From positions 44,592 to 108,591 of IMG/VR virus record IMGVR_UViG_3300042923_001459: a stretch of 64,000 bases of DNA; one strand, 5' to 3'. The translations under genes and the position numbers were made by a program. Positions within the stretch are counted from its first letter, which is position 1. Every line of letters starts with the position of its first letter. Positions 29,066-64,000 of the stretch are shown here, piece after piece. The stretch comes from a virus. A model generated the notes under the pieces. It saw nothing but the letters and a program-made list of their open reading frames with translations. It did not search any database and was not told the DNA's origin.

Positions 29066-29421
29066 TGCCCTCACTGCCCTCTCCCGTTACTCTACTAATA
29101 CTTTGTTTAGTACCAACAACTCCAGAAAAACACCTTAAATTTTACCCGTGATTTAGCGGGTATCTGCCCACCCTCTAGAGGCCCTCTGGGACCTTTCTAG
29201 GCACTTTTACAGCTGATAGGTATACCGCTGCCGCCGTATTACCTTATATATATATTATATCACATTAACGTTCTTTTGTAAACGGTTTGTTTAAAATTTG
29301 TTTAGACTGCTAGACGGTTCAATCGGTTGTCAAGACTTCTGGTTCTGTCCTCAGGTTTTCTATCGCGAGGCCAAAGCTTTTGAGAAGTCTGGGGAAAACC
29401 CTAAGATTCTCCCCAATTCTC

Positions 29422-29637
29422 TTACATCATATCGATTCCGACGAGTTCTACGATAGATTCAATACAACCTGAGTCAATGAATGCATCGAAGTCTCTGTCG
29501 TTCAGGTCTGCTACATCATAGTCATTCAGAATTCGTTTAACTACTTCATCTACCATTTCGTCAGTAAAGTTATCCCATTGTCTGTCAGCTTCTGCTCTTA
29601 TTTCATTTCGGAAATACTTAAGTCTGTTATCATCCAT
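29422..29637 (-). CDS. Cassette hypothetical protein (acidic)
   Basis: Own promoter + AAGGAGG RBS. Confidence 0.75.
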   Translation of the reverse strand: MDDNRLKYFRNEIRAEADRQWDNFTDEMVDEVVKRILNDYDVADLNDRDFDAFIDSGCIESIVELVGIDMM

Positions 29638-29654
29638 TTTGTTTCCTCCTTTGT

Positions 29655-29708
29655 ACTACCTTATAGAATAATTATATCACAAAGGAGTTGAGTTGTAAAC
29701 TGTTTTTA
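29655..29708 (-). promoter_or_regulatory. Representative cassette promoter (A-tract UP element, -35 TTTACA, extended -10 TG-A-TATAAT)
   Basis: Minus: AAAAACAGTTTACA-actcaactcctttGTGA-TATAAT-TATTCTATAAGGTAG. Confidence 0.9.
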
Positions 29709-29725
29709 AATAAAAAAGAGAGAGC

Positions 29726-30010
29726 CTATGCTCCCTCCTCCTTAAAGAGAAATTCAATGAATGGTTCTGCTTCATTTCCAATAGCATCTCGAAAGTAATC
29801 CTTTACATTTTCAACTTCATTCTTTAGCGTTTCAATTGGAAAGTTATTGATTACGTGTGATACATATTGCCAGCCTCTAGGATAGAGATTTTGTTCCGGG
29901 TCGAATAGTTTGTCCGGATTCTGTTGTATGTAGTTTACTACCTTTTGATTTACTGCGCCAGTCTTTCCATACTCTATCCAGTCCTTTACATCGACACTAA
30001 ACATTGCCAT
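29726..30010 (-). CDS. Cassette protein resembling an isolated AAA+ lid segment
   Basis: DWIEY..VVNYI..NPD.L...YPRGWQYVS resembles the PR(S/G)W sensor-2/lid region. Confidence 0.5.
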   Translation of the reverse strand: MAMFSVDVKDWIEYGKTGAVNQKVVNYIQQNPDKLFDPEQNLYPRGWQYVSHVINNFPIETLKNEVENVKDYFRDAIGNEAEPFIEFLFKEEGA

Positions 30011-30114
30011 TTTGTTTCCCCCTTCATTATTACCTTATAGATTTATTATATCACAATTGTTTGCTTGTGTAAACTGTTTTTTAAATGAAGAAAGGAGAGC
30101 AATTAAGCTCTCCT

Positions 30115-30522
30115 CTAGAATTGGAAGCACCATGAACCACCACGAACGCCGAACACTAGGTCTTCGCTTTTACAAAGCTCATCGACTCTTTCAACTCTAC
30201 TTTCAATTAAGTCGGAGTCTTTATCGTACCCAACATAGAACCGACACATTTCATGAAACTCTTCTTTATACTCGTATTGTGGAATGATTTCAAGGAACTC
30301 ACCTGGAGCAAAGATAGTTTTGAACTTGTTCTCATCTCTTAAATCCAATGAGATAGTATCGAAGTCTCCGCCTTCTTGTCCGCTACGGAATTCAGTAATG
30401 TCGATGTTACCAAACTTAGCTGGTTTGATTATCATTGAAGTGCCGTTAGCATTGTGTTTGATATAATCAATCTTGTTGCAGTCCTTCGTACGTTTGAAGT
30501 TAATCCCGTTACATGATTTCAT
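30115..30522 (-). CDS. Cassette hypothetical protein
   Basis: Own promoter + RBS. Confidence 0.75.
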   Translation of the reverse strand: MKSCNGINFKRTKDCNKIDYIKHNANGTSMIIKPAKFGNIDITEFRSGQEGGDFDTISLDLRDENKFKTIFAPGEFLEIIPQYEYKEEFHEMCRFYVGYDKDSDLIESRVERVDELCKSEDLVFGVRGGSWCFQF

Positions 30523-30610
30523 TGTGTTGCCTCCTTTGATTACCTTATAGATTAATTATATCACAATTGTTAAGAGTTGTAAACTGTTTTTTAAAAGAAG
30601 AGAGGAGGGA

Positions 30611-30952
30611 TTACCCCCTCCATAATAATGCGTGGTATCTTTCCAAATCCAATAGCTTTGCCTTAGCATCATGAGGTTTTAGTTTCTCCTCTATGATTTC
30701 AGAGAAAACTTCATTGGCATTTAATCCAATTGCATAAGGGATTCCCATTAGGCGATTGAAGTCTTCTCTGTTGTCAACAGATTTTGCCAATAGGTTTTCA
30801 ATTTTCAATTGTGTGTTGTAATCTTTTCTTTCTTCCTTGTTCATCTTTGGTAAGTCCGTATCTCTATCTGGGTTGATGATGATTTCTAATCCCGTTGAAC
30901 CTACATGGAATATTCTCCGTTTGCTTTTTAATTCCTTGAAATAGTTATTCAT
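30611..30952 (-). CDS. Cassette hypothetical protein
   Basis: Own promoter + RBS. Confidence 0.75.
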   Translation of the reverse strand: MNNYFKELKSKRRIFHVGSTGLEIIINPDRDTDLPKMNKEERKDYNTQLKIENLLAKSVDNREDFNRLMGIPYAIGLNANEVFSEIIEEKLKPHDAKAKLLDLERYHALLWRG

Positions 30953-31040
30953 TTGATTCCCTCCTTTGATTACCTTATAGATTAATTATATCATAATTGT
31001 TTGATTGTGTAAACTGTTTTTTAAACAGCAAAAAAGAGAG

Positions 31041-31253
31041 TCAGTTGACTCCCTTCAGTCTTTTGCGTCTCATCATGTCTTGATATGATGTGCGGTCCGG
31101 TTGAATGAAGAGGTTGTACTCTTCTTCAGTAAAGCCAAGGAATTCTTGCAGAGTTCTTTCTTCATCTGCATCGTCATGCCAGTTATCAACGTAATCATCT
31201 ACGTCTTTAAGTTCTGCGTTGCCGTCAATATAGTCTTGAACAAATGTACTCAT
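31041..31253 (-). CDS. Hypothetical protein, paralog of 38918..39115
   Basis: TFVQD..G.A.L.D...YV..W...LQEFLGFT; start MSTF. Confidence 0.7.
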   Translation of the reverse strand: MSTFVQDYIDGNAELKDVDDYVDNWHDDADEERTLQEFLGFTEEEYNLFIQPDRTSYQDMMRRKRLKGVN

Positions 31254-31465
31254 ACTAGTTTCTCCTCCGTCCATACAGTTCTACGTAAAAATTGATTCCG
31301 CATTTCTTGCAGTTCTCCAAGTCCCTTTGCTAACTCGATTGTATCTTCTCCTGCTAGAGCAGCGCGTCCAATCATATCAGAAGTTTGTTCAATTTGTTTC
31401 TGAATGCTGTCATACATACGAAGTACTTCGCCAACCTTACATGGCTTCATGTCTGAATGATTCAT
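31250..31465 (-). CDS. Hypothetical protein
   Basis: Coupled ORF. Confidence 0.6.
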   Translation of the reverse strand: MNHSDMKPCKVGEVLRMYDSIQKQIEQTSDMIGRAALAGEDTIELAKGLGELQEMRNQFLRRTVWTEEKLV

Positions 31466-31474
31466 CGTATCTCT

Positions 31475-31546
31475 TCACCGCTTCTTTCTAAAGTAGAATA
31501 CTAAATAGATTATTAATCCAATACCGAACCATTTAATAATGTCCAT
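31475..31546 (-). CDS. Small hydrophobic peptide (23 aa)
   Basis: MDIIKWFGIGLIIYLVFYFRKKR after AAGGAGG. Confidence 0.55.
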   Translation of the reverse strand: MDIIKWFGIGLIIYLVFYFRKKR

Positions 31547-31576
31547 GACCGTTCCTCCTTTGAGGAGAGGGGAGGA

Positions 31577-31756
31577 TTACTCCTCTCCCTCATAGAATGT
31601 TTCACCAGTCTCTTCTCCCCATTGGGAGCGTGGTGCAAGTGCTTGCCCAGCTCCGTTGTATTCAACTCCGCATGCGCATTTGTTTGCCCAGGCTGATGTA
31701 AGTTTTACTTCGTTCTCGTCGCAGTAACGACATTGAATTGTTCTGATTTGTCTCAT
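31577..31756 (-). CDS. Small Zn-ribbon cassette protein (59 aa)
   Basis: Manual: MRQIRTIQCRYC...CACGVEYNGAGQALAPRSQWGEETGE. Confidence 0.65.
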   Translation of the reverse strand: MRQIRTIQCRYCDENEVKLTSAWANKCACGVEYNGAGQALAPRSQWGEETGETFYEGEE

Positions 31757-31859
31757 TTGAATTCCTCCAGTGTTTTTGTATTGGATTACCTTATAGATTA
31801 ATTATATCACAGACTTTTGATTATGTAAACTGTTTTTTAAAAGAGGAAAGGGAGCTAAA

Positions 31860-32084
31860 TTACAGCTCCCACATGTCGTTCTTATGAATGTCTATCTTAC
31901 CTGTGACTGGGTCCATGCACGCTGAGTTCCAGTTACCTTCCTCGTCTGTAATCTTGAGGAAGGGTTCATCACAATAGACATCGGCTTCTAGGATAACTCC
32001 GAATTTAGCACATAGAGTTTCCAATTGTCCTTGGAATTCTAGTCTCTCCTCAGGAGAGAGTTTTAGTCCGTCTGTTCTGCTCAT
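31860..32084 (-). CDS. Hypothetical protein
   Basis: Coupled to upstream cassette gene. Confidence 0.65.
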   Translation of the reverse strand: MSRTDGLKLSPEERLEFQGQLETLCAKFGVILEADVYCDEPFLKITDEEGNWNSACMDPVTGKIDIHKNDMWEL

Positions 32085-32323
32085 ATTGTTGCAATCCTCC
32101 GTTTCATTTCCAATGCTTCTTCCATTTCATGTAAATCCATTTCAATCATTGTAATCTCTTCGTTGAGAGCTTGGCGATGATTCTCAATGTGCAATGGGGT
32201 CCAGCTTTGTCCGACATCTTCGCGTTCCGCTTTCTTCCGTTCAATGTTTTCCTTGCGTTCCTTAATCATCTTCTCTAATCCATTGATTGAGTAGTATAAT
32301 GCATAATCACCTTGGCTCTTCAT
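32081..32323 (-). CDS. Cassette coiled-coil protein
   Basis: Own promoter + RBS. Confidence 0.7.
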   Translation of the reverse strand: MKSQGDYALYYSINGLEKMIKERKENIERKKAEREDVGQSWTPLHIENHRQALNEEITMIEMDLHEMEEALEMKRRIATI

Positions 32324-32414
32324 TGTTGTTCCTCCTTTGATTACCTTATAAGATAATTATATCATGGTTAATCAATCATGTAAACTGTTTTTTAAGAATA
32401 CTCTGTCATATCTC

Positions 32415-32466
32415 GTGAATCATAAAAGGAAGGATAAGGATATATATTATCCTGATTTCTGATTCA
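32415..32466. repeat. Second repeat family (GTGAATC...AGGATATATATTA...GATTCA), copy 1
   Basis: Similar to copies at ~36008, 37989, 46216, 52864, 54054. Confidence 0.6.
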
Positions 32467-32502
32467 ATCTGGTGACAAATAAAAAAGAGAGCGTTAGCTC
32501 TC

Positions 32503-32859
32503 TTAGTAAAGCCCACTTCCTGTTCCGAATCCGCAGCGTCCGCAAACAACTCCCATATATCCACGGCTTGGTCCGTTAACATCTTCTGCTTCGAAATTGT
32601 GTCCTTTCTCTTCACATTCTTTGAAGCGAGATATTTGTTCTTTAACTCCAGTTATTGCTAGTTCCATCTCATTGTCTGTCGCCTCGTTTGCTTCCTTTGC
32701 CTTGATTTCAGCTTCTTCAATTGTCATGCCTTCTTCTTTCATGTAGTAGAACACGTGGTCTCCAATAGATTCAACACGCATAAAGAAGTTCAGTTCTTCT
32801 TGTGTTGCGCTATCAAGACTGGTAACCAACAATACATACTGTTCGTATGTCATTTTCAT
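32503..32859 (-). CDS. Cassette hypothetical protein
   Basis: Own promoter + RBS; C-terminal C..GH...CGRCG. Confidence 0.75.
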   Translation of the reverse strand: MKMTYEQYVLLVTSLDSATQEELNFFMRVESIGDHVFYYMKEEGMTIEEAEIKAKEANEATDNEMELAITGVKEQISRFKECEEKGHNFEAEDVNGPSRGYMGVVCGRCGFGTGSGLY

Positions 32860-32950
32860 TTGTATTCCTCCTTTGATTACCTTATAGATTAATTATATCA
32901 CAGTTGTTGAGAGTTGTAAACTGTTTTTTAAAAAGAAGAGAGGAGTATTT

Positions 32951-33259
32951 TTAGTCCTCCTCGTCTTCCTCTATTTCGTCCAAGTGACAATCACAACAAC
33001 ATGGATGACATCCGCAAGATAACAATCTATCATCTTCATGCAAGTCATCATACGTTGCTTCTAGTTCTTCTTCGTTGTTTTCCCAATCACTGGGTTCATC
33101 ATGCATGAAGTCATCTTCTTCTTCAAACTTGTCATCCTCAACGAGGAGCTTGGCGCCTTCCCATTCAGCTCCGCACATACAAATTAAATCGCCATCTACT
33201 TTGTGAGGTCCGCAATATGGAGATGGTCTATCGCAGAATCTGCATTCATAATGTGCCAT
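32951..33259 (-). CDS. Acidic Cys-rich cassette protein
   Basis: CRFC, CMCG, D/E-rich middle, CGCHPCCCDC. Confidence 0.7.
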   Translation of the reverse strand: MAHYECRFCDRPSPYCGPHKVDGDLICMCGAEWEGAKLLVEDDKFEEEDDFMHDEPSDWENNEEELEATYDDLHEDDRLLSCGCHPCCCDCHLDEIEEDEED

Positions 33260-33349
33260 TGTTCTTCCTCCTTTGATTACCTTATAAGATAATTATATCA
33301 CAGATTATAGAACTTGTAAACTGTTTTTTAACAACAAAAAAGGAGAGGG

Positions 33350-33817
33350 TTAGCTCTCCTCCCCTAAACAACTATCACATCGACAACCATCATCACAATC
33401 ATCGTCATCGTCATCTTCTTCCTCTTCATCCGCTATGACAATTTTGACCACTCGTTCTACTTCTTCTCTAAGATTATCCTCAAGTGTGTCTTCACCTTCT
33501 AACCAGCTTCCACTTGACCACGGGTAACTTCTCTGCACTTCATAAGTTACATCTTCCTCTTCCTCTTCTTCTACTTCGCAATCACAATCATCTCCATCTT
33601 CGCAATCATCATCCTCGTCGTTCTCTTCTTTCTCTTCGGCTTGATAAGTGAGTTGGCAATCATGGAATGCGTCCATCTCTTCTTCAGTAAAGAGATGTTC
33701 TAAACCATTATCTTCTATTGCAGCGCCGAAATAAGCAAGACTATGATGTCTATCAGGTATTGCATTATATATCGCATCTACTACCTCTTTAAGTTGCTCA
33801 TCAGTTAATTGACTCAT
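33350..33817 (-). CDS. Highly acidic cassette protein
   Basis: Long D/E tracts interspersed with Cys. Confidence 0.7.
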   Translation of the reverse strand: MSQLTDEQLKEVVDAIYNAIPDRHHSLAYFGAAIEDNGLEHLFTEEEMDAFHDCQLTYQAEEKEENDEDDDCEDGDDCDCEVEEEEEEDVTYEVQRSYPWSSGSWLEGEDTLEDNLREEVERVVKIVIADEEEEDDDDDDCDDGCRCDSCLGEES

Positions 33818-33907
33818 TTTGTTTCCTCCTTTGATTACCTTATAGATTAATTATAACACAATTGTTAGGGTTTGTAAACAGCTTTTTAAAACAAAAAAAG
33901 GAGAGCG

Positions 33908-34105
33908 TTAGCTCTCCTCAATTGGTGCAAACATACGTTGGAAGTTCCTGAACATCTTGGCTCCATCTTGCCATAGTTCATTTGGTGATGGTTTGATCAT
34001 GAAGTTACCTTGTTGTCCCATCTTCACCACATGTCCTAATGCTTCGAGCAAATCATCGAATTCAAGTATGTCTAAGCAATTTGGGTAAACGATTTGAATT
34101 TTCAT
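33908..34105 (-). CDS. Cassette hypothetical protein
   Basis: Own promoter + RBS. Confidence 0.7.
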   Translation of the reverse strand: MKIQIVYPNCLDILEFDDLLEALGHVVKMGQQGNFMIKPSPNELWQDGAKMFRNFQRMFAPIEES

Positions 34106-34215
34106 TTTGTTCCTCCTTTGTGATTACCTTATAGAATAATTATATCACAAACTTTTGAATTTGTAAACTGTTTTTTAAGACAAAAAAAGGAGAGGGATTT
34201 CTCCCTCTCGTACTT

Positions 34216-34446: not shown

Positions 34447-34537
34447 TGTTATTTCCTCCTTCGTTATTACCTTATAGATTAATTATATCACAATCGTTTG
34501 GGTTTGTAAATTGTTTTTTAAAAGAAAAGAGAGGGTG

Positions 34538-34801
34538 TTACCCCTCTACCTTTAATTCATACCAAGTATCTGAATAGCCATTTGCTGCTGCGTTTGTTAC
34601 AGCATTATTGAGATTTGATACCAATGATTTAATTGTTTTAGGTTCTAAGTTAATTTTCTTATTACCTTTTTCATGTTGCCATGATTTCCCGACTTCAAGA
34701 GTGTAACCAAAATATTTAATAAATTCTTCTAAAGTTCTAGCAATCTCCGTTGTTTGTCCTCTACGATGTTTGATGATTGTGAAAATCTTTGGTTCTTTCA
34801 T
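34538..34801 (-). CDS. Cassette hypothetical phage protein
   Basis: TLEE.IKYFGYTLEVGKSW...KIN..PKTIKSLV.NLN. Confidence 0.75.
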   Translation of the reverse strand: MKEPKIFTIIKHRRGQTTEIARTLEEFIKYFGYTLEVGKSWQHEKGNKKINLEPKTIKSLVSNLNNAVTNAAANGYSDTWYELKVEG

Positions 34802-35208: not shown

Positions 35209-35604
35209 TTAGATAGCCTGGTCAATAACTGCTGGGTATTGTGGTGTGTAGAGTTCGATATCGATTTCATCTACGCCAACCAGAGTGTCCTGTGTTTCAC
35301 CAGTTTTTGGATTGAATAGTTTACCTTTAAAGGCGTTTCGTTTAGCTGAGGGCTTAACGATTTGGACCTGACGTCCTGTAGCCCAACCGCTTACCACATT
35401 TACGATATCGCCTTCCTTGAATGCTGGTGTTTCAACTTCATACCATTTGCCAGCTTTTGGAGCTTGGGTGGCAGCCATTTTATCAATTGCTTCATTGATT
35501 TGAGTAATAAGAGTTTCTGCTTTAACTCCAACCACCTTGAGGTCAAAGAGTTTACCAATTTCTTGAGCTACCTTGTAGTTTGTTTCGTTTGTAAGTTTTT
35601 TCAT
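35209..35604 (-). CDS. Rho-N-like helical domain + KOW (NusG-CTD-like) protein, paralog 1
   Basis: FKEGDIVNVVSGWATGRQVQIVKP KOW motif. Confidence 0.6.
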   Translation of the reverse strand: MKKLTNETNYKVAQEIGKLFDLKVVGVKAETLITQINEAIDKMAATQAPKAGKWYEVETPAFKEGDIVNVVSGWATGRQVQIVKPSAKRNAFKGKLFNPKTGETQDTLVGVDEIDIELYTPQYPAVIDQAI

Positions 35605-35696
35605 TTTAATTCCTCCAATGTTTTTTAATTTGTATTACCTTATAGAATAATTATATCACAAGTCTTAGTACTTGTAAACTGTTTTTTTAAAAGTTT

Positions 35697-35909
35697 TTAT
35701 GCTGTTCTTCGTATGTATACTTGGTGCACCAGTTTTGAAAGTCTTTTCATGTCAAGAAATGATATGAAGTTCTTACCGCGATATGCTGCCGGGAATGGTT
35801 GACCTTTGAACTGGTAAGGGCGTCCAAGTTTTTCTGTTAATCTTATTCTCTTTGCCGGTCTTTCTTTCATCATTAACTTTAGTTCTGTGAGTTTTTCTGT
35901 GTTTAGCAT
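35697..35909 (-). CDS. Basic cassette protein
   Basis: Own promoter + RBS. Confidence 0.7.
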   Translation of the reverse strand: MLNTEKLTELKLMMKERPAKRIRLTEKLGRPYQFKGQPFPAAYRGKNFISFLDMKRLSKLVHQVYIRRTA

Positions 35910-36007
35910 TTTGTTTCCTCCTTTGTTTTTGTATTACCTTATAGAATAATTATATCACAAACTTTTGAATGTGTAAACTGTTTTTTAAAATTCTCTAGTG
36001 ATTTCTC

Positions 36008-36062
36008 GTGAATGAAAGATTTTAGGGTAAAGGATATATATTACCGATTAAACTGATGAACA
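36008..36062. repeat. Second repeat family, copy 2
   Basis: Core GGTAAAGGATATATATTACC at 36026-36045. Confidence 0.65.
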
Positions 36063-37894: not shown

Positions 37895-37988
37895 TTGTAT
37901 TTCCTCCTTTGTTCTTCCTTATAGATTAATTATATCACATGCTTTTGAATTTGTAAACTGTTTTTTAATTGATCTCAGGTGATTTCTA

Positions 37989-38042
37989 GTGAATCAAGTT
38001 CTGATAGGTAAAGGATATATATTACCTCATTAATCTGAGATT
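37989..38042. repeat. Second repeat family, copy 3
   Basis: GTGAATCAAGTTCT-gata-GGTAAAGGATATATATTACC. Confidence 0.65.
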
Positions 38043-41690: not shown

Positions 41691-41790
41691 TTGAATTCCT
41701 CCAATGTTTTTTTAAATTTGTTTTCCTTACCTTATAGATTAATTATATCACATTTCTTAGTACTTGTAAACTGTTTTTTTAAAATCTTTT

Positions 41791-41868
41791 TTAACGACTT
41801 ATTATTAAGTAGATAATGAATGCTACGAATTCAGGAGTAAAATTAATACTCATTTGATATTTTTTCAT
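41791..41868 (-). CDS. Small hydrophobic peptide (25 aa)
   Basis: MKKYQMSINFTPEFVAFIIYLIISR, own promoter and GGAGG. Confidence 0.45.
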   Translation of the reverse strand: MKKYQMSINFTPEFVAFIIYLIISR

Positions 41869-41943
41869 TTAGCATTCCTCCTTATAGATTAATTATATCA
41901 CAATCTTATGAGTATGTAAACTGTTTTTTAAAGAGGAGAGGAG

Positions 41944-42582: not shown

Positions 42583-42849
42583 TTAGGAGAGGTTCTCTAC
42601 TACAACTATGGTTTTGCCTTCCTTCTTAGCAAGATCAACCCCGCGCCAAATAAAGAAGTCTTCCTTGACATCAGCGTAATATGCTGCATCGTTAGCGGTT
42701 AACCATTCTCTCAACTTAGCTCCTTCCTCCTTGTATGTTGGGTTGTTCCAAGAACGTACCGGAAACAATACTTCAATGAGTCTACAAATGTTAACTACTT
42801 TAACACCATCAATTTCTTCCATAACCGGAACATTTCCAATCATTTTCAT
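42583..42849 (-). CDS. Cassette hypothetical protein
   Basis: Own promoter + RBS. Confidence 0.7.
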   Translation of the reverse strand: MKMIGNVPVMEEIDGVKVVNICRLIEVLFPVRSWNNPTYKEEGAKLREWLTANDAAYYADVKEDFFIWRGVDLAKKEGKTIVVVENLS

Positions 42850-42949
42850 TCCTCCAGTGTTTTTAATTTGTATTACCTTATAGATTAATTATATCACATG
42901 GAGTAGTATTTGTAAACTGTTTTTAAATAAAAAAGAGAGATTTCTCTCT

Positions 42950-46116: not shown

Positions 46117-46215
46117 TTTGTTGCCTCCTTTGTATTTGTATTACCTTATAGAATAATTATATCACAGACTACTATTTTTGTAAACTGTTTTTTAATTGAT
46201 CTCTAGTGTCGCTGA

Positions 46216-46336
46216 GTGAATCAAGTTCTACGCGGTAATATATATCCTTTACTCTGTTTCTCTGAAAGGATAAAGGATATATCCATCCTTAGGATTCCTG
46301 TATATCTCTGGGTTCACCGTGTCATCTCTGTGAACA
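46216..46336. repeat. Second repeat family, double copy with inverted core
   Basis: GTGAATCAAGTTCT-acgc-GGTAATATATATCCTTTAC then GGATAAAGGATATAT. Confidence 0.6.
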
Positions 46337-49840: not shown

Positions 49841-50311
49841 CTAGCCCATCATACTTTGTAATTGTTGTTGATATTCTTTTATCACTGTTTGAAATTTAAA
49901 TCCTGGGAACTTTTTCCATTCCAAAAGTAAAAATTTAAATGTTTCTACTTCTAGACTACCCTTAAGTACATTGCAATTTTGACATGCGCATGTTAAATTT
50001 TTAGGTGTTGATAGACCGCCTTGAGCTCTGGGTACGATATGATCGACAGTAGTACCAATTTCACCACAATATTTACAAATATTGTTATCTCTTTTAAGAA
50101 CAAATTTCTTTAAACTCATTTTGTCATAAATGAAAAAAACTACACCATCTCTATTTACAAATGCTGCCTCTTCTATTACATATTGATATGCTTTTTCAAT
50201 ATCAATTGAGTTAAACCAAATTCTGTCTTTTGTTCTTCCCATTGCTTTTACTACATTAGATTGAATCTTATCAAGTCTACTTAAAGATACTTTGATTGGC
50301 GTCATTTTCAA
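49841..50311 (-). CDS. HNH endonuclease
   Basis: RDNNICKYCG..TVDHIVPRAQGG....NLTCACQNCNVLKG. Confidence 0.9.
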   Translation of the reverse strand: MKMTPIKVSLSRLDKIQSNVVKAMGRTKDRIWFNSIDIEKAYQYVIEEAAFVNRDGVVFFIYDKMSLKKFVLKRDNNICKYCGEIGTTVDHIVPRAQGGLSTPKNLTCACQNCNVLKGSLEVETFKFLLLEWKKFPGFKFQTVIKEYQQQLQSMMG

Positions 50312-50878: not shown

Positions 50879-51283
50879 TTAAAGATTGTTATCGTATCTT
50901 ACTCCAGTACCGGTAAAGTATCCAACACGTCCTTGGATAATCATCAATGGTATTTCTTTGAATTGCAATTTGCCAGTGTTGACCGCTTTTCCTTCAATTG
51001 GATGCAATGATGTAGTGATGTGCGGAGTTGAAGGATTCTTGTAGTACTTCATGAGTTCACTGTGGAACTCAACTTGAAAGCCTTGGTTAATATCATCATT
51101 GCCTTCTCCAAACACCATTACTTCAACGTATTCACCGATGATATCATCTGGGAGCAGTTCTTTGGGTTTGAATTCCAATGTAATATGCGGAAATTCAATT
51201 GTTCTATCTAGAGTTGGAGCAATTGCCTTTAGTTCATTATATGTACGTTCATCAAAGAATACACCTGTGTACACTGGTTTCAT
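50879..51283 (-). CDS. 2H phosphoesterase family protein
   Basis: Two HxT motifs: FPHITL and TPHITT. Confidence 0.7.
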   Translation of the reverse strand: MKPVYTGVFFDERTYNELKAIAPTLDRTIEFPHITLEFKPKELLPDDIIGEYVEVMVFGEGNDDINQGFQVEFHSELMKYYKNPSTPHITTSLHPIEGKAVNTGKLQFKEIPLMIIQGRVGYFTGTGVRYDNNL

Positions 51284-52752: not shown

Positions 52753-52863
52753 TTTGTTTTCCTCCTCTTAGTTTGTATTACCTTATAGATTTATTATATC
52801 ACATTACCATGTCCTTGTAAACTGTTTTTATTAATGTTTTTTCTGTTTCTCAGATGTCGCTGA

Positions 52864-52909
52864 GTGAATTAAAAAAGGTGAGGTAATATATAACCCCACC
52901 TTGATTCAC
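52864..52909. repeat. Second repeat family copy (inverted core)
   Basis: GTGAATT..GGTGAGGTAATATATAACCCCACC..GATTCAC. Confidence 0.55.
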
Positions 52910-53290: not shown

Positions 53291-53602
53291 TTACCAAACT
53301 TGTGGTTTCCAACGAGTTTCAAACTCATCGCTAAGTTCGTATCCTTTTAGATTGGCGTATACGATAGGAGGAATTTCTCCTTCTCTATCACTTACGTAAA
53401 GGTAACCTTTCTTTACCAAGCTACCAACCACGCCTTTTGCTGACTTGATATCAATCTCTGTTTGATCGGCGATATCTCTAACTTCTATATCGGAAAAACT
53501 GTATTCCGCGTAATATCCATCCGTCATTAGGTAATTCATTACCTTTGCTTCCATTTCGGTCAGGATACCATCTTTTTGAGCTTGAGCAATTTTTTTCATC
53601 AT
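53291..53602 (-). CDS. Winged-helix DNA-binding protein
   Basis: LTEMEAKV...DIADQTEIDIKSAKGVVGSLVKKGYL. Confidence 0.65.
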   Translation of the reverse strand: MMKKIAQAQKDGILTEMEAKVMNYLMTDGYYAEYSFSDIEVRDIADQTEIDIKSAKGVVGSLVKKGYLYVSDREGEIPPIVYANLKGYELSDEFETRWKPQVW

Positions 53603-53952: not shown

Positions 53953-54053
53953 ATTATCTCCTCCTTTATTACCTTATAGATTAATTATATCACAATAGGA
54001 GGGATTTGTAAACGGCTTTTTAAAAATACTTCTTTGATCTCAGATGACGTCTG

Positions 54054-54099
54054 GTGAACAAAGTTCTATGAGGTAAAGGATATATATTACTTGGTTCAC
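54054..54099. repeat. Second repeat family copy
   Basis: GTGAAC-aaagttctatga-GGTAAAGGATATATATTAC-ttg-GTTCAC. Confidence 0.65.
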
Positions 54100-54143
54100 A
54101 GAAATCACACAATAAAAAGGCGGGTTGTTAGCCCGCCTACACT

Positions 54144-56521: not shown

Positions 56522-57205
56522 TTATGCCATTTCTTTTTCTTGCTCTTCTTGTTCTTTAATTTCGGTTTCAGCATTGATTACTGGTTGCTCATCGACTGCA
56601 ACTACTTCTTCTTTTACTTCTTCCTCAACTGCTGCAGGTTCTTTAACTTCTTCTTTAACCGGAGCTGCTGCCACTACATTTGCTGGATTAGTTTGGTCAT
56701 CTGCTTTTTTGATTTTCCAGAAGTCCATTGTGATTTCGCAACCTTGAAGTGTTCCCTTTACCGGGTGAATCAGGATACATTTGATAGCATCTTTCTTAGC
56801 GGAATACTTGGTCATTTGAGCTCGGCGATTAATGAGAATCTCTCCACCAGTAATTTCAACGATATCACCAACTGCGTATGGAAGATTGGCTCCTTCTTCG
56901 TCAAACCATTTAGCTTGCTTAACTCTTGGTTCGCGAGGAGTTGTACTAGCTTGACGACCGCGTTTTGCTGGAGCTGCTGTAGTTGATTGTGCTGTTTGAC
57001 CAGCCGGAGCTTCAGTTCCTTCTTGAGAAGCTGCTTCACCATTTTGATCAACCGGAGCCGGAATTTCTACTGTTTCGCCAGCATCAATTTTAGCATTAAT
57101 CATTTCAATAATGATTGGTTTTTTCTTACCGATGTAAGTAAGACCCATTTGTTTAGCAATTGCTACCACGTCATTGTATTGAGCATCATGTGTAAGTTTT
57201 TCCAT
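56522..57205 (-). CDS. Rho-N-like + KOW protein, paralog 5, long linker and acidic tail
   Basis: YNDVVAIAKQMGLTYIGKKKPIIIEMI; PYAVGDIVEITGG...ITMDFWKIKK. Confidence 0.62.
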   Translation of the reverse strand: MEKLTHDAQYNDVVAIAKQMGLTYIGKKKPIIIEMINAKIDAGETVEIPAPVDQNGEAASQEGTEAPAGQTAQSTTAAPAKRGRQASTTPREPRVKQAKWFDEEGANLPYAVGDIVEITGGEILINRRAQMTKYSAKKDAIKCILIHPVKGTLQGCEITMDFWKIKKADDQTNPANVVAAAPVKEEVKEPAAVEEEVKEEVVAVDEQPVINAETEIKEQEEQEKEMA

Positions 57206-57420
57206 TTTTAATTCCTCCATTTTGTTTGGTTTTTTATTTCCTTACCTTATAGATTTATTATATCATATATCAAGTGTTTTGTAAATACCTTTTTTAAAGT
57301 TTTTTCAATTAATTTTTCCTCCAATCCATTTGGTATGTAATTCCTTATATAATTATTATAACCAATAACGGTGGCCTTGTAAACTAATTCTTTAAAGTTC
57401 GTACAAAAAAAGGAGCCTTA

Positions 57421-58103: not shown

Positions 58104-58250
58104 TTACGCTTTTGCGTTTTCGGTTTCTTTAGCTGCTTGGACATCTACCTTGATACCATACTTAGCTAAAGTACTTTGAATCAACTTAGCTTCAGCGCTG
58201 CTCGCCACTTCTACATTGTTTGTACCAGTCGAGGAAAGAATTTTTGTCAT
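58104..58250 (-). CDS. Small protein (48 aa), paralog of 58429..58563
   Basis: MTKILSSTGTNNVEVASSAEAKLIQSTLAKYGIKVDVQA. Confidence 0.65.
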   Translation of the reverse strand: MTKILSSTGTNNVEVASSAEAKLIQSTLAKYGIKVDVQAAKETENAKA

Positions 58251-58428
58251 TGAAAAATCACTCCCAATTAGGTTTTTTGGTTGGACTATTGTATGATGCC
58301 AAATACAATAATAATAGGAAGAATAAGTCCTATGTAGGGGAGCGAGCAGCTTGTATTTCCTTATATTATTATTATATCACAATATATCTGTTTTGTAAAT
58401 AGGAAAAGGGGAAATAATTCCCCTTTTT

Positions 58429-58563
58429 TTAAATTGCAGTTGATAAGGCTTGTACACCAATTTTAATTCCATACTTGCCCAATGTTTCTTGGAGAAGCTT
58501 GGCTTCTGCCAGGCTAGCCACTTCCACCGAATTTGTTTGAGTAGTAGATACGATTTTAGCCAT
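58429..58563 (-). CDS. Small protein (44 aa), paralog of 58104..58250
   Basis: MAKIVSTTQTNSVEVASLAEAKLLQETLGKYGIKIGVQA. Confidence 0.65.
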   Translation of the reverse strand: MAKIVSTTQTNSVEVASLAEAKLLQETLGKYGIKIGVQALSTAI

Positions 58564-58741
58564 TAAAATCACTCCTAATTTTGGATTGGGTTTGTAAGGC
58601 TCGTACAATGTTTTTAATTTGTATTACCTTATAGATTTATTATATCACATAATTATGTATATGTAAACTGTTTTTTAAATGTTTTTGCAAAAAAAATACC
58701 CTACCCTGTGGGTAGAGCATTAGCTATTGCTGGTATCACTA

Positions 58742-59146
58742 TTAGCTTTTGGAGAGAATAGCGATAGTGTGGAACACCCCATCACCGAACTCAAAGTCTA
58801 TCTTTACTACTGACGCAACTGAATAGCCTAACTCTTTAGAGATACTCTCTAGTTCATCTGTCATTGTAGCAATGAACTCAGCTCGTTTAAACGTCCCCGC
58901 TACTATTTTGCATGTAGCATCATCGACAGGATACCCAACGTGTTGTTCGAATAGAGATCTATCCATTACGCAATGGATTACAATGACATCGTTTTTTTCA
59001 TCTACCGCTGCACTACGGATAGTTTCAAGTAAATTGTCTTCAAAGAATTGAAACACACTTTCATCAACACTGATGTCATCGTTATTGATAACCAATAGGT
59101 TTGTGATCTTAGTTTCTTTTACCGCTCGTTTCATTAGTCTCTTCAT
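58742..59146 (-). CDS. Hypothetical protein with N-terminal MKRLMKRA motif
   Basis: Lacks cassette promoter; basic leader like the GNAT linkers. Confidence 0.7.
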   Translation of the reverse strand: MKRLMKRAVKETKITNLLVINNDDISVDESVFQFFEDNLLETIRSAAVDEKNDVIVIHCVMDRSLFEQHVGYPVDDATCKIVAGTFKRAEFIATMTDELESISKELGYSVASVVKIDFEFGDGVFHTIAILSKS

Positions 59147-59244
59147 GATGCACCTCCTTCTGCAGTTTAAATAACACGTATATATTTAATTATATTAACA
59201 GAAGGGATGAAAAAGACATAAAGAAAGGAGGCTTTTCAGCCTCC

Positions 59245-59679
59245 CTAGCTTGTCATAGCTACCATGACGATATAAGATTCAATATTTTCTAAGAATGCTA
59301 ATCCCTTCTTGAGGTTCTCCTCATATTGTTTAATCTTCTCTTCTGGTAGCATATTATATCGATGTCCAAGCGACCATTCAATATCCATGCAACCAAGCAT
59401 ATGACAATCATCATCCATAGAAGTATTGTGAGAGCCCCAAACGTTAATACCCCAGACTGTTTTACCTGCTCCCCACTCGCGAGGTTTTCTACCATGCCAG
59501 CCGCTCATATAAACATCTGGTGAACCAGGTTTGCTATAGCTCCATGTAGCTTCAGCTGAAGCTACTCCGGAATCGAGTTTGTAACCTTTATCTCTCATAA
59601 TCTTATGAGCTTTCTTTAAGAAATCTTCCGAAAGTAATGTAACTCTTGCCATTGAAGGGTGAATGTAACCTGTTCCCAT
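59245..59679 (-). CDS. Cassette hypothetical protein
   Basis: Own promoter + RBS. Confidence 0.75.
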   Translation of the reverse strand: MGTGYIHPSMARVTLLSEDFLKKAHKIMRDKGYKLDSGVASAEATWSYSKPGSPDVYMSGWHGRKPREWGAGKTVWGINVWGSHNTSMDDDCHMLGCMDIEWSLGHRYNMLPEEKIKQYEENLKKGLAFLENIESYIVMVAMTS

Positions 59680-59774
59680 TTATAATTCCTCCTTTGTGAT
59701 TACCTTATAGAATAATTATATCACATAACGTGGAATTTGTAAACTGTTTTTTAAACAACGCGCACGCGTAGGTC

Positions 59775-59803
59775 ACGTGTTTACCATAGTAAACTATATA
59801 GGC
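59775..59803. repeat. 29-bp direct repeat, copy 2
   Basis: Identical to 56437-56465. Confidence 0.85.
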
Positions 59804-59830
59804 AGCAGAAAAGAGAGGGTTATCCCTCTC

Positions 59831-60202
59831 TTATTGAATTGATCTTTGTAGTTCTTGCATGTTAATGTAAGCTTTAGCAGCCTTTTCAATTTGAATACTC
59901 ATTACATCGACTGCAGCTTTCACAATATCTTTTTTCAGCTTTTCAATATCATAATCTCCGTCTATTGGATTATCCGTCCATATGTAAATACTTGCCCATG
60001 CTCCGATACCAATAGAAGAAGAATGAGTTTTAATCTTTCCTAAGTCCCAAGTACTACAACCAACCTGCTGCAATTTACCGTTAGCATCTCTAAATTCAAC
60101 ATAATCCCCTTCACTATCCTTAATAACTCGACCGGTAAACTCTTCAACTTTCAAATGTTGTTTGGTATCGCTGATGTGAGCACTTATCTTTGTAATTTTC
60201 AT
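59831..60202 (-). CDS. Hypothetical protein
   Basis: Start MKITK after GGAGG. Confidence 0.7.
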   Translation of the reverse strand: MKITKISAHISDTKQHLKVEEFTGRVIKDSEGDYVEFRDANGKLQQVGCSTWDLGKIKTHSSSIGIGAWASIYIWTDNPIDGDYDIEKLKKDIVKAAVDVMSIQIEKAAKAYINMQELQRSIQ

Positions 60203-60203
60203 A

Positions 60204-60530
60204 TTATTCCTCCTCCTCTTCATCATCTTCTGAATCTCTTTCAATACCAAGAGCTAATTCTACTTCGTTGATAGCATCTTGAACTACTTCGCAGAAGATT
60301 TCTTCTGCCTCATAGTCTTCATCTGGTTCTCTTACATCTTTTCCAACCAGAGCTTCAAGTACTTTGTTAATGTTATCATCTGTAGCTTCAAGCTCTGTCT
60401 CAACGGAATATGAACCACCAACATATGTACCTCCTTCAAGTAGATATTTGATCTCTTCCACTGTGATAGCATATTCAAAAACGTACTTAAGTTTTTCACC
60501 ATCGCGTACAATTTTCGCCATATCATTCAT
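60204..60530 (-). CDS. Acidic cassette protein
   Basis: Own promoter; D/E rich. Confidence 0.7.
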   Translation of the reverse strand: MNDMAKIVRDGEKLKYVFEYAITVEEIKYLLEGGTYVGGSYSVETELEATDDNINKVLEALVGKDVREPDEDYEAEEIFCEVVQDAINEVELALGIERDSEDDEEEEE

Positions 60531-60717
60531 CCTCCAATGTTTTGATTACCTTATAAATATATTATATCACAGATTCTTCATTATGTAAACTGTTTTTTAA
60601 ACAAAAAAATGATGTCAATTTTCATACATCATCCGGATTTATGTTATATTAAATAATAATCTCTTTATCATCAGAGTTGACACTGAATCACCTACATGTA
60701 TGTTAATGTAAAATATA

Positions 60718-61389
60718 TCAATACAAGGATTCTTTAATCTCTGGTTTATCTTCTACTTTTCTAACTATAGCATTTCTTTCTCTAAAACTCTTCTCAGTGT
60801 TCTTTGCTTTCAGATCATCATACCAAATTTCAGATGGTAGTTCACGAATAGATAGGAGGTACTCTAAAATGCTCATAAACCATTCTTGCGATTTCTTTTT
60901 GTTATCTCCAAAGAAGAAAGCCTTTTGTTTCCCTTCCTCTGTCCATATTTCTACTGAATGCCCATCCTTCTCATTACAGTGTAGAATCCAAGATGTTTTG
61001 TCCTTCAACTTAACCTTATAGCAACGTGCTTCTCTACTATTTTCATGTGCTCCAAGTTTGAGATACAATCCATTTAGGTTTTCAAATTTATTAAACCAAA
61101 ACTTAAAATCAAAGGAATCAATTCCACCTGCTGTAAAGAGTGTAATATCAGGTAAGTTTGAAATATATAGAGTTCTGATATTTGTAAACTTAAACACATG
61201 ATGTAGATCCCATTTAACTTTATAGTTGTTTGAATGATTGTCATTCAGTGCAAAATTACCTTCCTTATTAAAGGAGATAGTATAAACACTCTCCCAATCT
61301 CCAACCTTTAATCTCTTACCCTTATCTAGTTGTAATGTTTTCTTGAGTTCATCTGAAAAAGCTTTCAATGTTCCATCCATTACCCTCAC
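60718..61389 (-). CDS. Hypothetical protein
   Basis: 223 aa ORF. Confidence 0.7.
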   Translation of the reverse strand: MRVMDGTLKAFSDELKKTLQLDKGKRLKVGDWESVYTISFNKEGNFALNDNHSNNYKVKWDLHHVFKFTNIRTLYISNLPDITLFTAGGIDSFDFKFWFNKFENLNGLYLKLGAHENSREARCYKVKLKDKTSWILHCNEKDGHSVEIWTEEGKQKAFFFGDNKKKSQEWFMSILEYLLSIRELPSEIWYDDLKAKNTEKSFRERNAIVRKVEDKPEIKESLY

Positions 61390-61468
61390 CCCACTTTAGC
61401 AGTTTATCCTGCTTTGAAAACAAAATAAAGGTGGGTGTGATACATTATTACATGCAAAAAGCTCAAGA

Positions 61469-62356
61469 TTAAACTTGAGCTCTCTTCTCAAATAACTGCT
61501 TAGAGATATCTAAAATTTCTTTTTTCTTATCAATTTGATCTACCCATTCTTTAGGGATAGCATCATATCCATAATGTAATCCAGCTAGTCCACCTGCAAT
61601 TGCTGCAGTTGTATCAGCATCTTCTCCAAGATTGACTAACATCAGAACTGCATCTTTGTATGTATCTGTTGTTAATAATGTTCTCAATACCCATTTGAAC
61701 GTATTAACAACAAATCCATCTGGTAATACGTTTGGATTTCTTGTTTCACATAGTTCATAACGAGTACCCTTAATTTTTTTGATGATTATTTCCTTTAAAT
61801 CCGCTCCATTAAGAACTTCAAATGCAATTTGATTGTAGATATCGCAAGCTTCAGATGCAAGGTGATCATAATGAGTCATTTCAGATTGAGCAATCGATAT
61901 ATCTGCAACATCAGTAGAGTATTTGTAAAACAATGCTACCGGTAAACATCTCATCAAAGAACCATTACCTGCACTCTTCTTGAGAAAATCGTGAGATGCT
62001 TTTGATGCTTTAAGCCATTCAACTTCCGTTGTTGGTTTCTTACTTAAGACAAGCTGTGTTGTAACACCGATGTCTTTTGGACCCGTTGCTGCCCATTGTT
62101 TGAAGTATTTTCCGATAGCTTCAATTGGTTGCATTGGATTTTCCAAGATACCACACGCTACCGCTAATGTCATTGCAGTATCGTCGGTTGTTTCTCCTGG
62201 TGCTACGTTCATCCAGCCACCACCAATCATTTCATCCACAATACCGTGTTCTTTAATGATTTCTTCTTCTGACATGAATTCAGTTGTTGCGCCTAATGCA
62301 TCTCCAACAGCTAATCCCATCAGACCTCCTTTGATTTTGTCTTCCATTAATCTCAC
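61469..62356 (-). CDS. ADP-ribosylglycohydrolase (DraG/ARH family)
   Basis: GLAVGDALG..EF, TTDDTAM, AGNGSLMR, MTH, DADTTAAIAG. Confidence 0.93.
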   Translation of the reverse strand: MRLMEDKIKGGLMGLAVGDALGATTEFMSEEEIIKEHGIVDEMIGGGWMNVAPGETTDDTAMTLAVACGILENPMQPIEAIGKYFKQWAATGPKDIGVTTQLVLSKKPTTEVEWLKASKASHDFLKKSAGNGSLMRCLPVALFYKYSTDVADISIAQSEMTHYDHLASEACDIYNQIAFEVLNGADLKEIIIKKIKGTRYELCETRNPNVLPDGFVVNTFKWVLRTLLTTDTYKDAVLMLVNLGEDADTTAAIAGGLAGLHYGYDAIPKEWVDQIDKKKEILDISKQLFEKRAQV

Positions 62357-62451
62357 TCCGTCCTTTTATTACTTGATATATTTATTATATCACACATTAT
62401 GACCTTTGTAAACTGTTTTTTTACAAGAAAAAAAGAGAGCTTTCGCTCTCC

Positions 62452-62820
62452 TTATGGACGATATGCTTTTGTAACTAATACTCTTAAAGCTTCTTTCATG
62501 AGACCTGTTAATTTTGATTCGTTCATGTCGAACGAAAATGGAATTTTAACCTTACCATATTCGATACTATGATGTCCAATTGAGATATAGTCACTATCCG
62601 AATAATCTTGGCCTAGTGTAATTTCATAATTATCAATTCTGATAATACTAAAGGTGAAAAATTTGATTTTGTCCTTGGGAAAAATCTCCAACAAATCTTT
62701 TTCAAAAGATTTAGCTACACCTTGCATAAACTCCTTAACTTCCCTTTCGCGGTCTAGTTTCGATTGACGAATGTTCGAAGCTAGTTTCTTACGTTCAATA
62801 ACATCTGCAAATGGATTCAT
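62452..62820 (-). CDS. Cassette hypothetical protein
   Basis: Own promoter + RBS. Confidence 0.7.
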   Translation of the reverse strand: MNPFADVIERKKLASNIRQSKLDREREVKEFMQGVAKSFEKDLLEIFPKDKIKFFTFSIIRIDNYEITLGQDYSDSDYISIGHHSIEYGKVKIPFSFDMNESKLTGLMKEALRVLVTKAYRP

Positions 62821-62900
62821 TTTAATTCCTCCAATGATTTAATTTGTATTACCTTATAGAATAATTATATCACAGATTACTGTTTTTGTAAACTGTTTTT

Positions 62901-63641
62901 TTAACATTCCGTTAATTCAACCATAGTTGTGATTTGAAGTTTATCTTCAAGAAATTCCATAAGTGCTTCAATTTGGCTAGCATATTCTTCTCTCTTCTCT
63001 CTATCATTGTTCATAAAGTCTGGTGTACGAATTTGATTAAGGAAATAAGAATCTATATCACTAACCTTTACCCAACTAGCAAGAATGCCGTTAGTGTGCC
63101 AATACTTCTTTGGACCTTTTCTAACATCTGGTAGACCAGAAAGTTTTATGTAGAGATATTCGCCAATGATCTTAGCATCAATATATTTTCTTTTCCAAGA
63201 CGACTTATACTCTTGTTCTTTCTTATGCATTAATTTGATAGCGTCCTTAATAACTGGCGGGTTAAGTATTTGAATTTTCTCTAACATAGAACGACTACAT
63301 TTCGTGGAGAGAGATTCAAGCACCTGTTCTCTTTCATCTTCAGTAAACGTACCCTCAATGAATTTAACAAGCATTTCATCTTTCTCAAGCTTTTCCTTCA
63401 TTTCCATGATAGCAATTTGAATAGCATGTTCTTCAGAGCCATAACGAGCATATTCACGGTGAGCATATGGACAACCTGAATCACAAGGTTTAAACATAAC
63501 ATCACAGCCACCAATAGAACAATAATAGATGCCGATGTCGGGTTTGGAGTTCATAGAAAAACCTTCATTCACTCGTACTTTTGTTTTATCTATATGTTTA
63601 GAATCAAGCTTGCTTCGTTCCGTCATCAAATACTTGTCCAT
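62901..63641 (-). CDS. Cassette hypothetical protein
   Basis: 246 aa, own promoter. Confidence 0.75.
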   Translation of the reverse strand: MDKYLMTERSKLDSKHIDKTKVRVNEGFSMNSKPDIGIYYCSIGGCDVMFKPCDSGCPYAHREYARYGSEEHAIQIAIMEMKEKLEKDEMLVKFIEGTFTEDEREQVLESLSTKCSRSMLEKIQILNPPVIKDAIKLMHKKEQEYKSSWKRKYIDAKIIGEYLYIKLSGLPDVRKGPKKYWHTNGILASWVKVSDIDSYFLNQIRTPDFMNNDREKREEYASQIEALMEFLEDKLQITTMVELTEC

Positions 63642-63715
63642 AAAAAAACCTCCAATGTGATTAATTACCTTATAAGATAATTATATCACGTATTGGAGGT
63701 TTTGTAAACTGTTTT

Positions 63716-64000
63716 TTATCTTATTTTGAAAGGTTCAATGTTTAATCCAAGTTCTGCAATAATTTCATTTCTGCGTAATTTGTTATCATCCATAATGGGC
63801 GTATCAACGTATTCACGATATTTACGTGCCCATGTAACCCAAATTGGAAGAGTAAGCAAAATTGATTTCAATGTTTGATTACCGTCACCAGGCTTACTGC
63901 GCATTGCCACAGCCATGGTAGCTATTGATTCCTCTACCTCAAGATCAAAAGTAGACTGAACAAAGGCTATACAGTTTTCTTCACTTGGTTCTTGTTCAAC
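63716..64000 (-). CDS. Hypothetical protein, 5' end outside window
   Basis: Frame stays open to the window edge (VEQEPSEENCIAF...MAVAMR). Confidence 0.6.
   Translation of the reverse strand, partial: VEQEPSEENCIAFVQSTFDLEVEESIATMAVAMRSKPGDGNQTLKSILLTLPIWVTWARKYREYVDTPIMDDNKLRRNEIIAELGLNIEPFKIR

Follow-up and report, generated by a model that had tools for sequence, protein, structure and literature searches.

Background

In T4-type phages (phi1/RB49, PST/T4, and nt-1/KVP40), ORFan genes are flanked by early-promoter stem-loop (PeSL) elements, each of which combines a strong sigma-70 early promoter with a stem-loop terminator (PMC2839356, PMC4122927). A second system of comparable design, the host-takeover module of Bacillus phage SPO1, consists of small early genes served by strong sigma-A promoters and ribosome-binding sites and grouped into many short operons (PMC6873191). 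Here, we describe an array of small, unidirectional genes that are preceded, singly or in short groups, by 65 nearly identical copies of an element with sigma-A-type promoter hexamers. The array occupies the right half of a 64,000-nt stretch (hereafter, the window) that forms the final 64 kb of the linear, 108,591-bp virus record IMGVR_UViG_3300042923_001459, for which CheckV estimates a completeness of ~22%.

The placement of one short motif before many early genes of a giant viral genome has precedents in the Mimivirus AAAATTGA motif and in the early promoters of the virion RNA polymerases of phiKZ-type phages. Those motifs serve viral RNA polymerases, whereas the motif of the present array is of the host sigma-A type and is accompanied by terminators and by evidence of recombination. 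To our knowledge, phage G, the lineage to which we trace the array, is the only cultivated megaphage, and its published transcription program is limited to software predictions.

Results

Anatomy of the array

All genes from 29.2 kb to the end of the contig lie on the minus strand, and their products range from 39 to 295 aa (median 93 aa). The array runs to the contig end (position 64,000), and its 34-kb extent is therefore a lower bound; its coordinates and those of representative features are collected in Table 1. A strict promoter pattern (TTTACA-N17-TATAAT-N6-8-TAAGG, at most one mismatch per box) matched 63 times on the minus strand within 29,236-63,716, and two variants lacking TAAGG (-35 boxes at 62,412 and 44,234) raise the total to 65 over 34,426 bp, that is, one promoter per 538 bp, with a median unit length of 455 bp. 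Elsewhere in the window, the strict pattern yielded a lone copy at 23,407, together with two matches within GNAT genes that look like chance. The strand bias is evident with other search models as well: a loose sigma-70 pattern matched 77 times on the minus strand versus 16 on the plus strand, and a position weight matrix (PWM) built from the copies scored at least 25 bits at 62 minus-strand sites and at one plus-strand site. An exact sub-pattern was found 21 times, compared to none in 100 shuffled sequences.

The element spans ~58 nt and consists of a T-run/A-tract, CAG, TTTACA, 12 variable nucleotides, TGTGATATAAT, and TAATCTATAAGGTAAT. In the aligned consensus, a T-rich segment is followed by TtAAAAAACAG, TTTACA, 12 weakly conserved bases (aa..c.a.....), TGTGATATAAT, tAaTcTATAAGGTAAT, and acaaa. 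The -35 box is TTTACA in 65 of the 66 pattern matches of the window, the remaining one beginning with G; all 66 have T, and none has the canonical G, at the third position, though the pattern permitted TTGACA. With this substitution, TTTACA-N17-TATAAT agrees with the sigma-A consensus hexamers at 11 of 12 positions. TGTG stands immediately before A-TATAAT in more than 85% of the copies, giving a TRTG-type, extended -10 region, and AAAAAA is located at about -45 to -40 with a T-run upstream, resembling an UP element. The TRTG motif of the -16 region and the UP-element subsites are elements of promoter strength, and the repeat appears to bear every known feature of a strong sigma-A promoter except the G at position 3 of the -35 box. 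Transcription is predicted to start at the A ~7 nt past the -10 box, and the first transcribed bases, (A)TAAGGTAAT, are conserved.

The leaders are 21-48 nt in length and end in GGAGG, separated by 7-9 nt from the ATG. Between +12 and the ribosome-binding site they fall into at least three classes, among them a long form at 25 promoters (..AAAAACAYTGGAGGAATTMAAATG) and a short form at 18 (..AAAGGAGG..), plus others; in some copies, the TAAGG of the promoter runs on into the GGAGG of the gene itself. The short leader TAAGGTAATCAAAGGAGG, with 25 nt to the ATG, is common to six of the eight neighboring promoters at 30,583-33,878 (minus strand), and such local grouping of one leader type points to serial duplication in place or to gene conversion.

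Hairpin/T-run sites typical of intrinsic terminators are about sevenfold enriched in the 29.2-46.5 kb section (55 versus 7.7 +/- 3.2 in shuffled sequences), nearly all of them on the minus strand. Such a site lies at most 70 nt from the stop codon in 54 of the 79 genes, overlapping the stop codon for 36 and enclosing it within the loop for 15. The 5' arms of the terminators are G/A-rich, and several proteins therefore end in residues encoded by the stem. In the example at 34528..34547 (Table 1), the T-run of the terminator passes directly into the A-tract of the next promoter.

The initial annotation of this DNA had proposed about 65 promoter-gene-terminator cassettes, an element of ~55 bp shared by nearly every small gene, and G/A-rich terminators that often overlap the stop codon, all of which agree with the counts given above. 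Its further statement that the -35/-10 spacer alone varies is nearly right for the promoter, but has to be extended to the leader downstream of +12.

With respect to content, 48 units hold one gene, nine hold two, four hold three, and three contain no gene of at least 39 aa. Among the closely spaced promoter pairs (Table 1), the one at 41,920/41,770 encloses a 150-nt unit filled by a 25-codon open reading frame (ORF), MKKYQMSINFTPEFVAFIIYLIISR (41,790-41,867, minus strand), the ribosome-binding site of which is the TAAGG of the promoter lengthened to TAAGGAGG.

A second, rarer repeat of ~80 nt is found between a terminator and the next promoter at six minus-strand locations (32,385-32,470; 35,978-36,060; 37,958-38,040; 46,185-46,290; 52,822-52,905; and 54,013-54,100). 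It comprises a GGTAA..ATATAT..TTACC hairpin, then ATTCAC-N5-10-(A/T)CAC-N-GAG, then an A-tract; the hairpin is a clean terminator in some copies and degenerate in others, and one copy is present in the metagenomic relative described below. No Rfam family matches this repeat; it may serve as a site for a regulator or represent a subfamily of terminators.

Lineage and distribution of the promoter family

The left part of the window encodes a large terminase, a subtilase, a thymidylate kinase, a 5'-3' exonuclease, a NAD kinase, and GNAT polyproteins. Between 2.9 and 21 kb, the window is collinear with the end and the start of the genome of Bacillus phage G (gp677-gp694, followed by the terminase at position 1 of G), with protein identities of 23-88%, which identifies the source as an uncultured phage G relative. 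In a megablast comparison with the phage collection, phage G was the sole match, via short stretches, with no closer isolate among the phages compared. The genome is thus phage G-like, with Donellivirus relatives, and falls outside the Tevenvirinae (T4-like) type. A search of the whole window against Rfam at the gathering threshold returned no family, and no tRNAs were found.

The same promoter family is present in phage G, with 42 strict matches (40 on the plus strand) and 65 plus-strand matches to the PWM. Almost all copies are located at 375-480 kb, in a run of small genes (gp5xx-gp67x) that stops where synteny with the flank of the window starts, and their consensus is taAAAAAcag-TTTACA-N12-TaTGaTATAAT-aaAtaTATAAGGtaa. 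A 25-nt promoter word was detected at 28 loci in metagenome contigs, most of them in three contigs, RCUH01000011.1 (476 kb), RCUU01000001.1 (188 kb), and RCUH01000718.1 (30.5 kb). The composite of these contigs, which represents a closer relative of the window (hereafter, the RCU phage), contains 69 plus-strand promoters in 48 kb and has the genes downstream of them in common with the window. In IMG/VR, the exact promoter word retrieved phage G and two other, weak contigs, one of which (175 kb) has just four copies. Only two single matches to the 25-nt word were obtained in 596 Gb of prokaryote genomes; this near absence from bacterial genomes identifies the word as a signature of G-like megaphages and not as a type of host promoter. 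Furthermore, CAG, the T in the -35 box, and the downstream TATAAGG are kept in the window, phage G, and the RCU phage, and are therefore selected features that do not merely reflect recent copying. A 2025 multi-omics study of phage G contains PhagePromoter predictions only and does not describe the promoter family (PMC12484599); the array is apparently undescribed for phage G and its relatives.

Turnover of cassettes and location of breakpoints

The gene content of the array changes rapidly compared to that of its flank. In a tblastn search against phage G, nine of the 79 array genes matched anywhere in the genome; five of these belong to one paralogue family and two map far off, at 142 and 164 kb. 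Of the 46 genes elsewhere in the window, 17 matched phage G, all of them within 2.9-21 kb and in conserved order. The RCU phage shares 25 of the 79 array genes, with 26-79% identity, on a collinear backbone. Nevertheless, about six cassettes are relocated between the two (the 103-aa gene at 53,291-53,602, for example, is 75% identical in the RCU phage and lies ~17 kb out of register), two adjacent two-gene blocks are swapped, and one gene pair is inverted. The blocks of DNA homology between the window and the RCU phage correspond to promoter-plus-gene units.

The strongest test of breakpoints was provided by the three RCU contigs, which are variants, 95-99.9% identical, from different assemblies. 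Every break in the alignment of their arrays is located at -25 to +82 of a -35 box. The differences include indels of one cassette each (285, 499, and 482 bp), in which the alignments overlap by 53-75 nt and which take the form of promoter-gene-promoter in one variant and a single hybrid promoter in the other. In addition, a 976-bp tandem duplication of two cassettes was found, along with a segment in which one variant has two additional cassettes (319 and 239 bp) flanking a pair of genes with only 80% identity in a background of 97-99% identity. Across the junctions, the alignments overlap by 53-92 nt, leaving, as a consequence, one hybrid promoter; this retention of exactly one hybrid promoter is more telling than the location of the breakpoints.

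Exchange between copies has also left traces within the window. Promoter pairs sharing at least 10 of the 12 spacer bases number 32, compared to 2.9 (maximum 8) under a column-shuffle null, and just one of the 32 precedes paralogous genes, indicating that promoter halves were copied or exchanged between unrelated genes. Spacer similarity between window/RCU orthologues was barely higher than for random pairs (0.43 versus 0.38), a difference that, in this small sample (n = 11), is compatible with either promoter swapping or fast drift.

The accessory-gene library envisaged by the initial annotation, with gain, loss, and shuffling of genes by recombination between repeats, is supported by these comparisons. 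Gene order is not identical in either relative, breakpoints of the RCU phage fall within the promoter repeat, and units are duplicated and moved as well. The shuffling idea withstands the refutation test that the annotation itself had set for it.

Outside the array, variants of the RCU phage that are 99.7% identical differ by a 372-bp, one-gene indel (L027:1,180-1,320 versus L029:6,660-7,130). The ends of this indel lie in a 26-nt repeat that comprises the ribosome-binding site and start codon of two neighboring genes; thus, short translation-start repeats also act as deletion endpoints.

Gene content and other features

The gene content of the array is mostly ORFan: among 30 array proteins scanned against Pfam and PHROG, a family was assigned to seven, namely an ADP-ribosylglycohydrolase, DUF4230, a trypsin-like protease, an HNH endonuclease, a YunG-like protein, and two PHROGs of unknown function. 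The HNH endonuclease (Table 1) is a possible source of double-strand breaks that would stimulate recombination. Three paralogue groups, all small, were identified in the array. The cassette family listed in Table 1 has five dispersed members, each of which keeps its own promoter with the private upstream variant AAAAAACTTTTAAAAAAACAG, so that promoter and gene were duplicated as one unit.

Two adjacent cassettes at 58,104-58,667 (minus strand) encode proteins of 44 and 48 aa that are 72% identical (MAKIVSTTQTN.. and MTKILSSTGTN..); their leaders are long (~70 and ~113 nt) and unconserved, versus the standard 25-40 nt. A 134-aa protein (50,879-51,283, minus strand), encoded by the second gene of a two-gene unit that shows the opposite gene order in the RCU phage, contains two H-I-T-(L/T) motifs in the layout of 2H phosphoesterases; it had no Pfam or PHROG match.

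Beyond the last array promoter, the long leader that precedes an 18-gene paralogue operon contains a strongly hydrophobic ORF of 40 aa (..RLWAIGLFWLAMLAGIMGIFVGFVMF.., 28,952-29,074, minus strand). The GC-richer leader segment at 28,900-29,248 was considered as a structured RNA and rejected, given that it had no Rfam match at E <= 1 and a fold z-score of -0.63 relative to shuffled sequences.

Table 1. Coordinates of the array and of selected features, in positions of the window
Feature	Position	Strand	Remarks
Unidirectional array of 65 promoter-leader-gene-terminator units, 79 genes	29246..63720	-	From pattern counts; cut by the contig end at 64,000
Typical promoter	42868..42927	-	A-tract and CAG 42,927-42,917; -35 TTTACA 42,916-42,911; TGTG and TATAAT to 42,888; then TAATCTATAAGGTAAT; predicted start near 42,880
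Long conserved leader, example	42844..42880	-	..ACAAATTAAAAACACTGGAGG..ATG
Typical terminator	34528..34547	-	AGAGGGG-TAACAC-CCTCTCT and T-run; the loop contains the TAA stop of an 87-aa gene (34,538-34,801)
Tandem promoters	57249..57383	-	98 nt apart; no gene of at least 39 aa between them
Tandem promoter pair	55,343/55,249	-	94 nt apart; kept in the relative
Tandem promoter pair	41,920/41,770	-	150 nt apart; encloses a 25-codon ORF
Final array promoter	29254..29293	-	Followed by a leader of at least ~170 nt, a 40-aa ORF, and then a long operon composed of small paralogues (28,903 down to 21,981)
Isolated promoter of the same type, outside the array	23379..23418	-	Upstream of a 157-aa gene (22,875-23,348)
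HNH endonuclease gene within the array	49841..50311	-	From family scan
ADP-ribosylglycohydrolase cassette	61469..62412	-	Variant promoter without TAAGG; phage G homologue distant, ~164 kb
One of five dispersed paralogous cassettes	35209..35699	-	Gene starts at 57,205, 55,173, 52,447, 41,690, and 35,604

Discussion

The array is probably an early, hyperplastic, and recombination-prone accessory-gene region of a phage G-like megaphage. Each small gene or gene pair would carry a near-maximal promoter of the host sigma-A type, in which the A-tract, together with the T-run of the preceding terminator, resembles the proximal and distal subsites of an UP element. Transcripts would begin with A, followed by a leader whose first ~11 nt are conserved and which has a strong GGAGG, and an intrinsic terminator would close the unit. 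With this layout, host RNA polymerase could make at least ~80 small proteins together, at a high level and mutually insulated, right after DNA entry; presumably, these products are host-takeover and counter-defense factors. The promoter/leader repeat of 60-100 bp, recurring every ~540 bp in one orientation, would at the same time provide portable homology. Homologous recombination between copies could delete, duplicate, insert, and relocate cassettes, with one intact hybrid promoter remaining in each case, and such recombination would explain the fast turnover of gene content.

Several points weigh against this reading. Promoter activity, timing, and terminator efficiency are all deduced from sequence, and sigma-A recognition alone does not account for the conservation of CAG and of the +1 TATAAGGTAAT box or for the invariant T as the third base of the -35 box. 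The cassette-exact indels come from relatives and not from the phage of the window itself, and the RCU contigs are short-read assemblies, in which repeats may skip or double segments; the 499-bp indel and the 976-bp duplication, flanked by repeats of at least 75 nt, are the most prone to such artifacts. The intergenic DNA of the array is nearly all promoter and terminator, which biases viable indels to end there, so that the enrichment of breakpoints is modest when set against an intergenic-only null. Finally, the small, fast-evolving proteins reduce the power to detect homologues.

An account in which the repeats are strong promoters kept alike by selection for expression, without a role in recombination, and in which illegitimate or endonuclease-driven events leave survivors that end between genes, would explain the position of the breakpoints, which must fall in promoters and terminators if they are to survive, and could draw on the HNH, GIY-YIG, and transposase genes present in these arrays. 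We nevertheless consider this account unlikely: each junction retains a single intact hybrid promoter and is free of scars, with homology that overlaps by 53-92 nt, the promoters of unrelated genes have spacers in common at many times the expected frequency (32 versus 2.9 pairs), and the comparable PeSL repeats have been shown experimentally to recombine (PMC2839356). Quite improbable, in our view, is a phage-specific regulon switch, whereby a phage factor (a sigma factor, appropriator, or repressor, delivered with the virion or made early) binds CAG-TTTACA or the +1 TATAAGGTAAT box and the element is read with its help. Such a factor would fit the invariant T in the -35 box (66 of 66, never the canonical G), the maintenance of CAG and TATAAGG across the window, the RCU phage, and phage G despite protein identities of ~50-60%, and the absence of the element from bacterial genomes (apart from the two stray matches), and phage G does encode sigma-like and RsfA-like factors, some of them found in virions (PMC12484599). 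Yet the agreement at 11 of 12 hexamer positions, the 17-bp spacing, and TRTG suit host sigma-A, so that no extra factor is required, and no candidate factor was identified in this analysis.

The initial annotation called the array integron-like and suggested that it may titrate host RNA polymerase. The regular, one-directional cassette layout and the very large number of strong promoters are in keeping with a site-specific system of this kind, or with a decoy array whose chief task is to soak up host RNA polymerase, but we judge both to be highly improbable. Every cassette has its own promoter, attC-like sites are absent, and searches for a tyrosine recombinase or resolvase were negative: PF00589 had no match on the 108.6-kb contig (~22% of the genome) or in the complete 497.5-kb phage G genome, and PF00239 had none on the contig. 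The junctions, moreover, fit homologous exchange between repeats of the PeSL kind (PMC2839356) better than site-specific recombination, and the comparison to integrons is therefore not supported beyond a general likeness, namely, that small and mostly unknown genes follow one another in one direction and come and go as discrete units. Integron cassettes are promoterless, bounded by attC, moved by IntI, and dependent on a single Pc/attI platform, none of which applies here, where 48 of 64 units are monocistronic, with their own promoter, and are bounded by a terminator and a promoter. Almost every promoter precedes an intact ORF equipped with a strong ribosome-binding site, a pattern that speaks for expressed products and not for a decoy.

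The conserved +1 box could be an operator for a global early shut-off factor, a Shine-Dalgarno (SD)-like stabilizer at the 5' terminus, or an ATP-initiating start region. In a broader and somewhat doubtful proposal, two roles beyond expression would keep the repeat uniform. It would serve as the exchange site of a population-wide cassette pool, in which hundreds of ORFans pass between G-like megaphages by recombination from repeat to repeat and perhaps as packaged mini-circles, and the CAG-TTTACA and +1 TATAAGGTAAT boxes, conserved in the lineage, would be gripped by one phage factor or act as an SD-like stabilizer at the 5' terminus, so that ~65-150 early transcripts are switched or protected all together.

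Among the described systems, the PeSL elements are closest in organization. Both types of element comprise a terminator stem-loop, an AT-rich upstream region, an early promoter, and a ribosome-binding site and are located in hyperplastic ORFan regions, and in both cases, close relatives differ by motif-bounded cassettes, with a single hybrid motif after deletion; the 285-bp indel of the RCU phage mirrors the case of RB49 ORF192 and phi1 that defines PeSL shuffling. The differences are substantial as well. The present array belongs to an unrelated phage lineage with a Gram-positive host, as indicated by its sigma-A features and the TRTG extended -10 region, and is contiguous and one-directional, with 65 copies in 34 kb compared to ~52 in the 164-kb genome of a T4-type phage. 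Here, the stem-loop is always upstream of the A-tract, and conservation reaches the first ~11 transcribed bases and frequently covers the leader in its entirety. Furthermore, PeSL repeats have been seen to recombine in experiments, whereas the activity and shuffling of the present array are deduced from sequence. Given that the genome is phage G-like and not T4-like, the array would be PeSL-like in its working but an independent instance.

The resemblance to SPO1's host-takeover module extends to products that mostly lack a known family; those of SPO1 act on host processes, and the resemblance of the present array is architectural (PMC6873191). SPO1 has 26 genes in ~12 kb, with far fewer and less uniform promoters, as opposed to at least 79 genes and 65 near-identical promoters in the array, and phage G holds ~105 kb of such promoter-array territory. 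No protein homology to SPO1 was found, the search for gp37-60 being limited to Pfam and PHROG scans. By analogy, the array may be regarded as a large counterpart, in a megaphage of Gram-positive bacteria, of the PeSL cassettes and the SPO1 host-takeover module.

Conclusions

The array provides a precise map of the probable immediate-early promoters of phage G, with one consensus repeated ~65 times per genome, and its cassettes amount to a defined list of candidate host-takeover and anti-defense proteins. The element itself is predicted to be a compact set of strong promoter, leader, and terminator for use in Firmicutes. The PeSL principle, in which regulatory repeats double as recombination sites and a library of ORFans is turned over, would extend well beyond the T4-like phages, and the array may help to account for the way in which megaphages assemble and refresh over 100 kb of accessory genes.

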